Below are positions 5,375 to 47,294 of a stretch of 64,000 nucleotides of DNA, one piece after another. The stretch lies in the NCBI RefSeq assembly GCF_013122565.1, contig NZ_CP053258.1. One strand, given 5' to 3'. Position numbers and translations under genes: made by a program. The stretch is from Escherichia coli (GTDB lineage: Bacteria > Pseudomonadota > Gammaproteobacteria > Enterobacterales > Enterobacteriaceae). Positions within the stretch are counted from its first letter, which is position 1, and each line of letters starts with the position of its first letter. The notes beneath the pieces were generated by a model, which saw nothing but the letters and a program-made list of their open reading frames with translations, made no database searches and was not told the origin of the DNA.

Positions 5375-5489
5375 GATTCCTCCGGTTCCTTAAAGGCAAA
5401 TTAAGCGGCTGCTGTTGCTGCATTGATTAAGGGCGGCCGTAGCCGCCCTTAGTGCTTGATTACAGGACGAAACCTGCAATCTGTCAAGT

Positions 5490-8173: not shown

Positions 8174-8938
8174 TTACTTACCAGAGGCGATACGATCACG
8201 GATGTGTTGCGCACGCTCTGTTGATGGTGGGTGAGAGTCAAACATGGACTGGGTGCGACCGCCATCCAGGCTAGCCAGTTTTTCAAAGCTGCCAACCAGC
8301 CCCTGGGTGCTGATGCCACGTTTCTTCAACAGATCAAAGGAGAAATCATCTGCTTCGGACTCTTTATCGCGGGAGTATTTCGCATTGATAGCGCCTTCTG
8401 CGATATCGCCTAATTGTGAGCGAGAAAGCTGGGAAGCCACACCGCTGGTAGCGGAAATCGCATCACGTGCGGCCACGATCGCATAAGAAGCTTTCATTTC
8501 AGCCAGAGAGTGACCCAACGCGACGTGGCCCAGTTCATGGCCCAGAACGCCTTCAATTTCGTTGTCGTTCATCATGTCCATCAGGCCACTGTAGACACGA
8601 ACACAGCCGTTCGCCATCGCCCATGCGTTGACGTCGCTGGTCATATAAACCTTATAGTTGACCGGCGTGCCATTAATATTGTTACCCAATGCTTTGGCGA
8701 TTTTTGCCAGACGTTTACCGTACTTGCTGGATTTACTTGCGACTTGATTGCCGCTGTCCATTTCGGCACAGCCCTGATTGGCAATCGCTTTTGCATCGGC
8801 ATCGCTTAATGTTGCTGCTTTATAGGCATTTAAACCGGAGCTGATAGCCATATTGGTATCAATACCGTGGGTATTTTGACACCCTGTCAGTAATGCTGCA
8901 GAGACCGCAATCGCCAGCAGTAATTTAGTATTCTTCAT
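8174..8938 (-). CDS. ycaL: M48-family metallopeptidase lipoprotein
   Basis: ORF track 8174..8962; internal ATG at 8936-8938 gives 254 aa MKNTKLLLAIAVSAALLTGC (lipobox) with HELGH zinc motif. Confidence 0.85.
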   Translation of the reverse strand: MKNTKLLLAIAVSAALLTGCQNTHGIDTNMAISSGLNAYKAATLSDADAKAIANQGCAEMDSGNQVASKSSKYGKRLAKIAKALGNNINGTPVNYKVYMTSDVNAWAMANGCVRVYSGLMDMMNDNEIEGVLGHELGHVALGHSLAEMKASYAIVAARDAISATSGVASQLSRSQLGDIAEGAINAKYSRDKESEADDFSFDLLKKRGISTQGLVGSFEKLASLDGGRTQSMFDSHPPSTERAQHIRDRIASGK

Positions 8939-9106: not shown

Positions 9107-10390
9107 TCAGGCTGCCTGGCTAATCCGCGCCAGCTGCTCGAAATAATCCGGAAATGTTTTGGCCGTACATTTGGGATCAAGAATCGTCACTGGTGTATCT
9201 GACAACGCCACCAGCGAGAAACACATCGCCATCCGGTGATCATTGTATGTCGCGATCTCGGCAAAGTTCAGTTTTTCCGGTGGAGTGATACGAATGTAAT
9301 CGTGCCCCTCTGCTACTTCTGCACCGACTTTACGCAGTTCTGTTGCCATCGCAAACAGGCGATCGGTCTCTTTAACACGCCAGTTATAGATATTGCGCAG
9401 CGTGGTGGTGCCTTTTGCAAATAACGCCGCGGTGGCAATGGTCATCGCCGCATCGGGAATATGGTTCATATCCATATCAATAGCGTTCAGTTCACCACGC
9501 GTGCAGGAAATATAATCATCGCCCCAGCAAATGGTCGCGCCCATTTTTTCCAGCACATCAGCAAAGCGAATATCACCCTGCATACTGTTGCGTCCAATGC
9601 CGGTCACTTTTACAGTGCCGCCTTTGATTGCTGCTGCTGCCAGAAAGTAAGAAGCGGAAGATGCATCGCCTTCGACCAAATAAGTACCCGGAGACTGATA
9701 AGACTGCCCGCCTTTAACGACAAATTGTTGATAGTGCTGATTTTCAATTTCAACACCAAACGTCTTCATCAGATTGAGTGTGATGTCGATATAAGGTTTA
9801 GAAACCAGATCGCCTTTAATACGAATCACCGTATCTTCCGGCGCAAGAGGCGCAGTCATTAATAGTGCGGTGAGGAACTGGCTGGAAACAGAGCCATCAA
9901 CGTCAACGTTGCCGCCAGTAAAGCCGCCCTGTAAACGCAATGGCGGATAATTTTCTTGTTCCAGGTAAGTGATCTTCGCCCCGCCCAGGCGCAGCGCATC
10001 CACCAGATGACCAATCGGGCGCTCTTTCATACGCGGCTCACCGGTCAGCACAATATCATTGCTACCCAGACAAAGAGCTGCCGCCAGCGGACGCATTGCC
10101 GTTCCGGCGTTACCGAGGAACAACTCCAGGGCGCTTTTTGCGTGTAATGGACCGCCGTTACCGATAATTTCGCAACGCGTACGATCGGCTGAAAGCGTAT
10201 AGCTTACCCCTAACGCTGCTAATGCATTCAGCATATGGCGCACGTCATCGCTATCCAGCAGATTGGTTAATACTGTTTTGCCGTGTGCTAATGCCGCCAG
10301 CAATAAAGCGCGGTTAGAAACGCTCTTGGAACCGGGCAGATTAATAGTGCCATCGACACGAGCGATGGGTTGTAACGTCAGGGATTCCAT
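9107..10390 (-). CDS. aroA: 3-phosphoshikimate 1-carboxyvinyltransferase (EPSP synthase)
   Basis: 427 aa [38 protein letters not shown]...; classic EPSPS N-terminus. Confidence 0.97.
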
Positions 10391-44054: not shown

Positions 44055-46331
44055 TTAATGCGCTGCTTCCGCCTTGTGCTTTTGTGCACTCTGGAATCCG
44101 TAAGTCAGCTCATTTTTCTCTTTATCCAGCGCGACGGTGACCTGACCGCCGTCCACCAGCGAACCAAACAACAGTTCGTTGGCGAGCGGTTTTTTCAGGT
44201 TGTCCTGGATGACACGCGCCATCGGACGTGCGCCCATTGCCCGGTCGTAACCTTTCTCGGCCAGCCAGTTACGCGCTTCCTGGCTCACTTCCAGAGAAAC
44301 ACCTTTCTGATCCAGCTGAACCTGCAACTCGACGATGAATTTATCCACCACCTGATGGATCACGTCAGTTGACAGATGATCGAACCAGATAATGTTGTCG
44401 AGACGGTTACGAAATTCCGGTGTAAAGATCTTCTTGATCTCTTCCATCGCATCGGTGCTGTTATCCTGGTGGATAAGACCAATGGATTTGCGCTCAGTTT
44501 CCCGTACCCCGGCGTTAGTGGTCATCACCAGCACCACGTTACGGAAGTCCGCTTTGCGTCCGTTGTTATCGGTCAGCGTACCGTTGTCCATCACCTGCAA
44601 CAGAATATTGAACACGTCCGGATGCGCTTTCTCGATTTCGTCCAGCAGCAGCACCGCATGTGGATGCTTGATTACCGCATCGGTCAGCAAACCGCCCTGA
44701 TCAAAACCAACGTATCCCGGAGGCGCACCAATCAGACGGCTGACGGTATGGCGTTCCATATACTCGGACATATCAAAGCGCAGCAGCTCAATGCCCAACG
44801 CTTTCGAAAGCTGTACCGTCACCTCTGTTTTCCCGACCCCGGTAGGGCCGGCAAACAGGAACGAACCGACCGGTTTATGTTCGTGACCTAAACCTGCACG
44901 AGCCATCTTAATGGCTTCAGTCAGCGCCTCAATGGCATTATCCTGACCGAAGACCAGCATTTTCAGGCGATCGCCGAGGTTTTTCAGGGTATCACGATCA
45001 CTCTGAGAAACACTCTTCTCTGGAATGCGTGCAATACGGGCCACCACGGACTCAATATCCGCCACATTTACGGTTTTCTTGCGTTTGCTTACCGGCATCA
45101 GGCGTGCGCGAGCGCCCGCTTCGTCGATAACATCAATCGCTTTATCCGGCAGATGACGATCGTTAATGTATTTCACCGCCAGCTCTACCGCCGCACGCAC
45201 CGCTTTTGCGGTATAACGCACGTCGTGGTGCGCTTCATACTTCGGTTTCAGGCCATTGATGATTTGAACAGTTTCTTCGATCGACGGTTCAGTAATATCA
45301 ATTTTCTGGAAGCGACGCGCCAGAGCACGGTCTTTCTCGAAAATGTTGCTGAACTCCTGATAGGTTGTCGAACCAATTACGCGAATTTTACCGCTGGAGA
45401 GCAACGGTTTGATCAGGTTAGCCGCATCGACCTGACCACCAGACGCTGCACCCGCACCGATAATGGTGTGGATCTCATCAATAAACAGGATGCTGTTAGT
45501 GTCCTGCTCCAGCTGCTTGAGCAACGCTTTAAAACGTTTTTCAAAGTCGCCGCGATATTTTGTGCCCGCTAACAGAGAACCGATATCGAGAGAATAAATC
45601 GTACAGTCAGCCATCACTTCCGGCACATCACCCTGAACAATTCGCCAGGCAAGACCTTCTGCAATCGCGGTTTTACCGACACCAGACTCCCCCACCAGCA
45701 GCGGGTTGTTTTTACGGCGACGGCAGAGAACCTGAATAGCACGCTCCAGCTCTTTCTCACGACCAATCAGTGGGTCGATTCCGCCCACACGCGCAAGCTG
45801 GTTCAGGTTCGTCGTGAAATTCTCCATACGTTCCTCCCCACCAGCTTGTTCTTCGCTGTTTGGCTGGCTGCCAGGATCAGAAGACTGTGTCGGCTCGTCT
45901 TTACGCGTGCCATGAGAGATAAAGTTCACCACATCGAGACGGCTGACTTCATGTTTACGCAACAGATATGCCGCCTGCGACTCCTGTTCGCTAAAGATAG
46001 CGACCAGAACGTTTGCACCGGTAACCTCATTGCGACCGGAGGACTGGACATGGAAGACCGCACGTTGCAGTACACGCTGAAAACTCAGCGTCGGCTGTGT
46101 GTCGCGCTCCTCTTCACTGGCAGGCAGAACGGGTGTGGTTTGTTCAATAAAGGCTTCCAGTTCCTGACGGAGCGCAACCAAATCCACAGAACACGCTTCC
46201 AGCGCCTCCCGGGCAGATGGGTTACTGAGCAGCGCCAGTAACAAGTGCTCGACGGTCATAAACTCATGACGGTGCTCGCGCGCTCTGGCGAAAGCCATAT
46301 TTAAACTGAGTTCCAGTTCTTGATTGAGCAT
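44055..46331 (-). CDS. clpA: ATP-dependent Clp protease ATP-binding subunit ClpA
   Basis: ORF track 44055..46346; ATG at 46329-46331 ([19 protein letters not shown]...) gives 758 aa; two AAA+ modules ([16 protein letters not shown]). Confidence 0.97.
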
Positions 46332-46361
46332 AGGCACCTCCCCCAATTTTTATGCCTGCAT

Positions 46362-46682
46362 TCAGGCTTTTTCTAGCGTACACAGCAATGGATGCTCATT
46401 CTCCCTCGCGTACTTGTTCACCATCGCCACTTTGGTTTCTGCAACCTCGGCGGTAAAGACTCCGCAAATGGCCTTCCCCTGGTAGTGAACAGCGAGCATC
46501 AATTGCGTTGCACGTTCTACATCATAAGAAAAGAATTTTTGTAACACGTCAATAACAAACTCCATCGGAGTGTAATCATCATTGACTAATATCACTTTAT
46601 ACATAGATGGCGGTTTTAGCGCGTCGCGAACTTTTTCTTCCGCCAGTTGATCAAAGTCCAGCCAGTCGTTCGTTTTACCCAT
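46362..46682 (-). CDS. clpS: ClpA adaptor for N-end rule substrates
   Basis: 106 aa [46 protein letters not shown]...; 30 nt upstream of clpA. Confidence 0.96.
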
Positions 46683-47004
46683 TGTCAGTTATCATCTTCG
46701 GTTACGGTTATCGGCAGAACGCCCTGCCGCTGACAAGAGCTTATTTGCCTGACCAATCTACTCCATATGATAGATAACTATCATCTATCGTTGGCATCAG
46801 CGACATCTGTCACATTCCTGTCAATAGCGTTAACTGCTTCAAATTTTTGATTCATACCTGCCCCCTGGCCCCTGTCAAATGCTTGACGGCTCGCCCTAAT
46901 TCTCTAAATTGTATTTCTAGAGTTGGCGAGGTTTTGAACAGCCCCCTCTCTGACCCCGGTTTATTCCATCTTACTTGTATAAGATTTGCGAAGGATGTCG
47001 AAGC

Positions 47005-47229
47005 ATGGAAAAGGGTACTGTTAAGTGGTTCAACAATGCCAAAGGGTTTGGTTTCATCTGCCCTGAAGGCGGCGGCGAAGATATTTTCGCTCATTATTCC
47101 ACCATTCAGATGGATGGTTACAGAACGCTAAAAGCTGGACAATCGGTTCAGTTTGATGTCCACCAGGGGCCAAAAGGCAATCACGCCAGTGTTATTGTGC
47201 CCGTCGAAGTAGAAGCGGCAGTCGCATAG
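47005..47229 (+). CDS. cspD: Cold-shock-domain protein CspD
   Basis: ORF track 46975..47229; ATG at 47005 (MEKGTVKWFNNAKGFGFICPEGGGEDIFAHYS...) gives 74 aa. Confidence 0.95.
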   Translation: MEKGTVKWFNNAKGFGFICPEGGGEDIFAHYSTIQMDGYRTLKAGQSVQFDVHQGPKGNHASVIVPVEVEAAVA

Positions 47230-47266
47230 CTCTTCTGTCTCATTGTGTACATCCTAAAGGCAAAAT

Positions 47267-47294
47267 GCCAGCCCGATCGGCTGGCATTTTTATC
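47267..47294. terminator. Bidirectional terminator between convergent cspD and macB
   Basis: aaaatGCCAGCCCGATCGGGCTGGCattttt: perfect 9-bp stem flanked by an A-tract and a T-tract. Confidence 0.75.

Follow-up and report, generated by a model that had tools for sequence, protein, structure and literature searches.

In phage lambda, the attB and attP partners are organized as BOB' and COC', with a core that has a 7-bp overlap. Among satellites of the PICI type, Fillol-Salom 2018 (PMC6092414) names an island EcCIO42/EcCI042, which may be the island of interest here. In this study we analyzed a 64,000-nucleotide stretch of Escherichia coli DNA (contig NZ_CP053258.1 of assembly GCF_013122565.1; hereafter the window), in which the initial annotation had pointed to a palindrome about 80-100 bp upstream of clpS, with 6-bp arms TGATAG/CTATCA around a 4-bp spacer, and had read it as a likely operator of a dimeric regulator. 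The sequence that it quoted, ccatatgatagataactatcatctatcg, was found in the window, and the palindrome was present at 46768-46783, in the spacer between the divergent genes cspD and clpS and 86-101 bp upstream of the ATG of clpS, so that both the arms and the distance were borne out. We consider it highly likely that the palindromic cluster at 46767-46789 is the empty attB of PICI-type satellites, laid over the -35 and spacer region of a clpS promoter and over the stop codons of the small gene yljB. The genes and repeats concerned are as follows.

44055-46346, minus strand: clpA (macB is also among the neighbouring genes)
46362-46682, minus strand: clpS coding sequence, the gene downstream of the palindrome
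47006-47229, plus strand: cspD
46781-46855, minus strand: yljB, a small ORF of 24 aa (RefSeq annotation and translation)
46768-46783, read on the plus strand: palindrome TGATAG-ATAA-CTATCA, within 46760-46790
46767-46773 and 46778-46784, read on the minus strand: the same palindrome as a 7-4-7 repeat, ATGATAG-TTAT-CTATCAT, with perfect 7-bp arms ATGATAG/CTATCAT

A second perfect inverted repeat, GATAGAT/ATCTATC, overlaps the first, with arms at 46769-46775 and 46783-46789 and 7 nt between them. The exact pattern of the palindrome is expected 0.07 times per window. Perfect 7-bp inverted repeats with a spacer of 0-8 nt were found in 11% of shuffles of the 323-bp spacer, and the whole window holds 70 of them compared to 33 in shuffles. 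Because repeats of this class are common in shuffled sequence, the palindrome alone is not statistically remarkable, and its significance therefore rests on comparative evidence. Just outside the palindrome arm, position 46766 is an A in this genome (CTATCATATGG) and a G in MG1655 and most E. coli (CTATCATGTGG); the substitution lies 2 nt upstream of a minor clpS start at 46764 and also creates a CATATG palindrome.

The 323-bp spacer was matched in 5,424-5,425 of 5,426 complete E. coli genomes and was contiguous in 5,056 of them, as it is in the window, which carries the empty allele. A complete attL junction was present in 364 of the 5,426 genomes (6.7%); set against the number of contiguous spacers, this count means that one satellite family accounts for nearly all interruptions of the spacer. 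The interruption was likewise seen in 16 metagenomic loci, which follow the E. coli sequence exactly as far as ...GATAGATGATAGTTAT before unrelated sequence begins. An ORF of 415 aa begins approximately 160 bp past the attL breakpoint and matches Pfam Phage_integrase (2.6e-18), Arm-DNA-bind_3 (7.9e-17) and the integrase family PHROG 1. In E. coli 042, the RefSeq annotation and PHROG matches place an element of approximately 9.8 kb between yljB and clpS, with genes for an integrase, an AlpA-like excisionase/regulator, a repressor, a primase-helicase and a fusion of head protease and major capsid protein; the element, of about 10 kb, is without tail or lysis genes. As judged from gene content and size, it is a PICI-type phage satellite. 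The junctions and the sites derived from them are listed below, with a slash at the breakpoint.

46769-46789, minus strand: putative attB core in the order B-O-B', GATAGAT (46789..46783), GATAGTT (46782..46776), ATCTATC (46775..46769)
46774-46784, minus strand: 11-bp segment ATGATAGTTAT, identical in attB and attP and present as a direct repeat at both satellite ends
E. coli 042, attL: ...CGATAGAT GATAGTTAT/TTATCAG...
The same attL junction in the direction of clpS: ...CCAACGATAGAT GATAGTTAT/TTATCAGTTAGTGTTCG...
E. coli 042, attR: ...TTATAAAT GATAGTTAT/CTATCATGTGG...
The same attR junction in the direction of clpS: ...GTTATAAAT GATAGTTAT/CTATCATGTGGAGTAGATT...

The left 45 nt of attB are identical to attL at 45/45 positions and the right 45 nt to attR at 44/45, and the other flanks are identical to attP at 38/45 and 34/45 positions; the junctions are thus hybrids, with attL composed of B and P' and attR of P and B'. 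An intact attP, TATAAAT-GATAGTT-ATTTATC, is carried by an IMG/VR contig of 10,780 bp (L221/L284), where it joins both ends of the element across the core. The first 25-mer of this contig recurs 306 nt from its end, a terminal redundancy which indicates a circular or concatemeric assembly. The scan of viral contigs for attP gave six matches, and L221/L284 was the only satellite among them, the other five being chance matches in unrelated AT-rich contigs. Both partners hold inverted core sites around the same GATAGTT centre, with 7/7 pairs in attB (GATAGAT-GATAGTT-ATCTATC) and 6/7 pairs in attP, which corresponds to the classical B-O-B'/C-O-C' layout. The 7-7-7 and 7-4-7 registers are about equally preserved in attP; we chose the 7-7-7 register on account of the 6-8 bp overlap known for tyrosine recombinases. 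The overlap and the cleavage positions are those that we infer from this symmetry and from the analogy with lambda/P4-type integrases. The repeat families TTGTTCG.. and GGTGTAGTT are present in both attP arms and are candidate arm-type integrase sites.

Three further observations concern relatives of the satellite and of its junction. In the phage collection, the satellite was absent except for two non-coding matches of approximately 200 bp to lambdoid Stx phages. These stretches, at coordinates 8516-8717 and 9377-9552 of the L203 element (the E. coli 042 island), share 80-85% identity with parts of lambdoid Stx-converting phages that carry no annotation, and may be a borrowed cos/packaging signal that points to the type of helper phage. 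Among the IMG/VR contigs, the integrases of the L235-L283 group are 76-78% identical to the clpS-site integrase and adjoin other host sequences; their junction core differs (ATTTTATCA(A/T)TTAGTG...), the arm repeat GGTGTAGT is the same, and the group looks like a satellite integrase family with diversified attB specificity. Finally, two metagenomic loci, L122 (OGXD01013585.1) and L153 (OGHJ01000557.1), break at the identical nucleotide, GATAGTTAT/AGAGATTTT..., and continue into low-GC DNA that codes for a PTS-like membrane protein and for a regulator of the LacI type, the latter truncated. None of the 5,426 complete E. coli genomes has this junction; we considered a second element at the breakpoint, judged these loci to be probably chimeric assemblies (alternatively a rare second insertion) and left them out of the analysis.

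The sequence arrangement suggests a mechanism in which two protomers of the satellite tyrosine integrase would each occupy one of the inverted core sites, GATAGAT or ATCTATC, the arm-binding domain of the integrase would hold the repeated sites in the attP arms, and strand exchange would take place across the 7-bp overlap GATAGTT that is common to attB and attP. The observed product of integration is an island of approximately 9.8 kb between yljB and clpS, flanked by ATGATAGTTAT, in which attL keeps the stop codons of yljB. At the other end, attR rebuilds ATGATA, the spacer and TAGATT, so that the core clpS promoter survives. After integration this promoter lies 9.8 kb from the upstream CRP-like sites and from the long leader transcripts that contain yljB, and integration may alter the expression of ClpS and ClpA in the approximately 7% of strains that carry the island. 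The promoter and its neighbouring sites are as follows.

46748, minus strand: clpS-clpA transcription start (MG1655 v2 922070; 166 reads, stationary phase, sigma call D/S; Cho 2014 supplement)
46764, minus strand: minor clpS start (v2 922054; 77 reads, heat condition; Cho 2014 supplement)
46755-46760, minus strand: -10 hexamer TAGATT of the proximal clpS promoter, conserved and correctly spaced from the start at 46748
46779-46784, minus strand: likely -35 hexamer ATGATA of the proximal clpS promoter, assigned by its position relative to the mapped start
46883-46919, plus strand: cspD promoter, TTGACG, a 16-nt spacer and TAAATT, with the start at 46919
46799-46814, minus strand: CRP-like site TGTGACAGATGTCGCT, conserved, centred at -112.5 from the cspD start and about -58.5 from the clpS start
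46828-46843, minus strand: CRP-like site TTTGAAGCAGTTAACG, centred at -83.5 from the cspD start and inside an invariant 25-nt block
46809-46826, plus strand: PhoB box TGTCACATTCCTGTCAAT, weakly occupied in ChIP-seq (PMC10294691) and overlapping CRP-like site II at 46799-46814

The starts at 46748 and 46764 were placed by means of the upstream 50-mers printed in the Cho 2014 supplement; that of the former, ...GATAGTTATCTATCATGTGGAGTAGATTGGTCAGG, matches the window. Relative to the start at 46748 the palindrome covers -19 to -36; the minor start lies 3 nt downstream of the palindrome, and its -10 region would fall inside it. The hexamer ATGATA has 4/6 matches to TTGACA and an 18-nt spacer, which makes it a weak -35 element, and it sits inside the conserved core described below. 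Because the two hexamers together score 8/12, below the threshold of the consensus promoter scan, the proximal clpS promoter is unreported by that scan. Kim 2012 gives a distal clpS start and the cspD start (window 46919) and has no start at the proximal site, so that the proximal promoter is condition-dependent. Distal clpS-clpA starts at v2 921540 and 921583 are given by Cho 2014, and SMRT-Cappable-seq places further starts upstream of yljB; the starts of transcripts that cover the palindrome are v2 921540 and 921583 and v3 922359, 922632 and 922665. The start at v2 921583 corresponds to about 47235 of the window on the minus strand, just past the cspD stop, and is the strongest published clpS start (368-1011 reads). 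Its transcript runs antisense to the whole of cspD, with a 553-nt leader that contains yljB, and transcription of clpS may interact in antisense with the toxin gene cspD. In two Enterobacter asburiae-like sequences (L007 and L131) only about 25 nt separate the conserved -10 sequence GTAGATT from the clpS ATG; since most of the leader, approximately 67 nt in E. coli, is deleted there, the proximal leader appears dispensable.

Both CRP-like sites are conserved. Their 29-bp spacing and their positions at -83.5 and -112.5 fit the layout of CRP sites that Uppal 2014 reportedly describes at cspD, and from this layout and the spacing to the start at 46919 we take TGTGACAGATGTCGCT to be a probable cspD CRP site II; TTTGAAGCAGTTAACG is presumably a CRP site on the same grounds. 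A class II CRP-dependent clpS promoter was considered and rejected, the CRP-like site being centred at about -58.5 rather than at -41.5. The only ChIP signal reported in the spacer is that of PhoB, 25 bp away from the palindrome, weak and transcriptionally inert: expression of cspD and clpS was unchanged in a phoB mutant (PMC10294691). On the plus strand, a sub-threshold match to the Rfam cspA thermoregulator RF01766 (43.1 bits against a gathering threshold of 78; E = 1e-9) extends over 46900-47293, that is, the cspD leader and coding region, and is probably due to cspD and cspA being paralogues.

To compare the spacer across species, we aligned it with those of ten other Enterobacteriaceae and seven more distant Enterobacterales, and with 46 distinct unoccupied sequences including metagenomic ones. 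Among the 46, which come from several enterobacterial genera, the 17-nt core ATAGATGATAGTTATCT was 80-99% conserved and the sequence GTAGATT, which includes the -10 hexamer TAGATT, at least 90% conserved. GTAGATT aligns with an extended -10 element, TGGTAAAAT, in Serratia, Yersinia, Rahnella and Pectobacterium, an alignment which supports an ancestral proximal clpS promoter. Conversely, the clpS-proximal arm of the palindrome was only 40-60% conserved in the same 46 sequences, and the dyad kept on average 4.7/7 pairs in the 7-4-7 register and 5.2/7 in the 7-7-7 register, being perfect only in Escherichia. Thus the expectation that the motif should be conserved in orthologous promoters held for the core and failed for the symmetry. 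The more distant Enterobacterales retain the -10 hexamer but not the 17-nt core. Klebsiella, Citrobacter, Enterobacter and Salmonella do keep ATAGATGATAGTTATCT, and the satellite integrase may therefore be able to act in these genera too. This core is longer than a -35 element requires, and part of its host-side function is unaccounted for.

Part of the palindrome is also coding sequence, in that the yljB stop TGA (46783..46781) and the next in-frame TAG (46780..46778) make up its right arm, CTATCA. YljB is among the small proteins validated by western blot from Weaver 2019, and a Salmonella homologue exists; in several genera its frame is interrupted or has no start, cases being Citrobacter, Enterobacter sp. 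Bisph1 and a soil MAG. A second small frame on the minus strand, 46740-46803, with ATGs at 46803 and 46794, crosses the palindrome and the -10 hexamer and is open in 11/11 Enterobacteriaceae, with the conserved peptide M..IDDSYL..(E)VD; it shows no synonymous variation in its core codons and no obvious Shine-Dalgarno sequence, and we regard it as a probable artefact of the conservation of promoter DNA. Coding constraint was therefore rejected as the reason for conservation, since the yljB frame is not kept, and since core codons that are invariant at synonymous positions indicate a constraint on the DNA rather than on a peptide. Upstream, a 25-nt block at 46822-46846 (AAAATTTGAAGCAGTTAACGCTATT, minus strand), which overlaps yljB codons 4-12, is invariant in all Enterobacteriaceae examined and near-invariant in Serratia, Yersinia and Pectobacterium. 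As the frame and start of yljB are not kept despite this block, the DNA itself is what is conserved; the block probably corresponds to CRP site I of cspD, and YljB may arise by translation of regulatory DNA in particular lineages.

The unexplained length of the core bears on the claim that the palindrome is a regulator operator. A symmetric site over promoter DNA is indeed present, but the protein to which the evidence points is the satellite tyrosine integrase, whose site is occupied in 364 of 5,426 genomes, and evidence for a host regulator was not found. That a host transcription factor also acts here, as a dimer which occupies -39 to -23 and represses or activates the proximal clpS promoter while the satellites share its site, is compatible with the attB and, in our estimation, unlikely. 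The 80-99% identity of ATAGATGATAGTTATCT in 46 sequences, the conservation at synonymous positions of two overlapping small frames, the extent of the conserved block beyond the -35 hexamer into the place where repressors act, and the condition-specific (stationary-phase) start would all suit such a factor, but the dyad symmetry is not conserved, at 4.7/7 and 5.2/7 pairs with the clpS-proximal arm at 40-60%, and distant Enterobacterales keep the -10 without the core. Resemblances to known motifs are imperfect leads, none of them convincing: the core fits the LysR/Nac-type pattern ATA-N9-TAT, the palindrome agrees with the DeoR operator TGTTAGAATTCTAACA at 11/16 positions and with Fur at 9/19, its spacing is wrong for the OxyR pattern ATAG-N7-CTAT, and the motifs of IHF, Fis, ArgR, MntR, Zur and Cra presumably do not fit it. 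No regulator site at the palindrome was found in the searchable literature (main texts), in which the core sequence is not printed, and the inert PhoB peak is 25 bp off. It appears quite improbable that the 17-nt core (-39 to -23) is the operator of a conserved enterobacterial regulator which gates stationary-phase production of ClpS, the N-degron adaptor, and ClpA, and that the satellite rewires their levels. If this were true, the satellite would keep the core promoter, swap ATAGAT for ATAAAT and put 9.8 kb between this promoter and both the yljB leader and the CRP-like sites, and approximately 7% of E. coli would have altered N-degron proteolysis through satellite carriage. The chances are about even that, for the host, the perfect symmetry is a by-product without function of AT-rich promoter DNA with GATA/TATC repeats: an equally good inverted repeat arises in 11% of shuffled spacers, and the symmetry decays outside Escherichia while the promoter elements persist. 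Against this, the symmetric site serves an integrase in 6.7% of genomes and its layout recurs in attP, so that an absence of function would be wrong for the mobile element, and the explanation covers only the use of the symmetry by the host.

The symmetry could also act in RNA, as a hairpin in the long clpS leader that folds around the yljB stop and affects yljB termination, mRNA stability or coupling to clpS, an idea to which we give hardly any credence. Transcripts do cover the region, from starts mapped upstream of yljB, and the predicted 9-bp stem, which includes the yljB stop, has a folding energy of -10.2 kcal/mol (z = -2.15), with 5/200 shuffles folding as well. However, the pairing is not kept in other genera and no consistent compensatory changes were seen there, no Rfam family matches the palindrome, and the yljB frame itself is broken or startless in several genera, for example Citrobacter. 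The stem is AU-rich and without a U-tract, and neither a terminator call nor an RNA 3' end between yljB and clpS was found (Adams 2021), which also led us to reject an intrinsic terminator or attenuator. In the reading that we prefer, the palindromic cluster is the satellite attB; the host would preserve the core for its role as promoter DNA, and this conserved, partly symmetric promoter sequence would be exploited by the satellites.

A palindrome that looks like an orphan operator thereby gains a concrete function, and a dyad found in promoter DNA may point to a target of a recombinase, not to a regulator site. The attB of a common E. coli satellite family is defined to the nucleotide as an 11-bp core with a putative 7-bp overlap. 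Possible uses are the typing of strains as occupied or empty and a docking site for engineered PICI vectors.

Compared to repressor operators that lie over the -35 and spacer region, the site is similar in having a dyad centred near -27 of a mapped promoter and a strongly conserved core; it is different in that the symmetry is not conserved across orthologues, and the symmetric use of the site is accounted for by a recombinase. The island shares with Gram-negative PICIs (EcCI) a length of approximately 10 kb, an integrase, an AlpA-like regulator, a primase-helicase and capsid-related genes, the lack of tail and lysis genes, site-specific integration and presence in E. coli 042. The single protease-capsid fusion of the E. 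coli 042 island resembles capsid-forming PICIs, the evidence being this one capsid gene rather than a full module. In comparison with lambda- and P4-type attachment sites, the clpS site differs in its target, which combines promoter DNA (-35 and spacer) with the stop codon of a small ORF and is neither a tRNA gene nor a coding 3' end, and in its identity segment, which is short (11 bp) and has putative cleavage positions. It agrees with them in several respects: a short core shared identically by attB and attP recurs on either side of the insert; in each partner a 7-bp centre lies between imperfect inverted sites of the core type; the integrase gene adjoins attL and encodes an N-terminal arm-binding domain; repeats are present in both attP arms; and the population contains empty as well as occupied alleles. 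As the attB of a tyrosine integrase from a PICI-type satellite, the site is typical and of a known kind.
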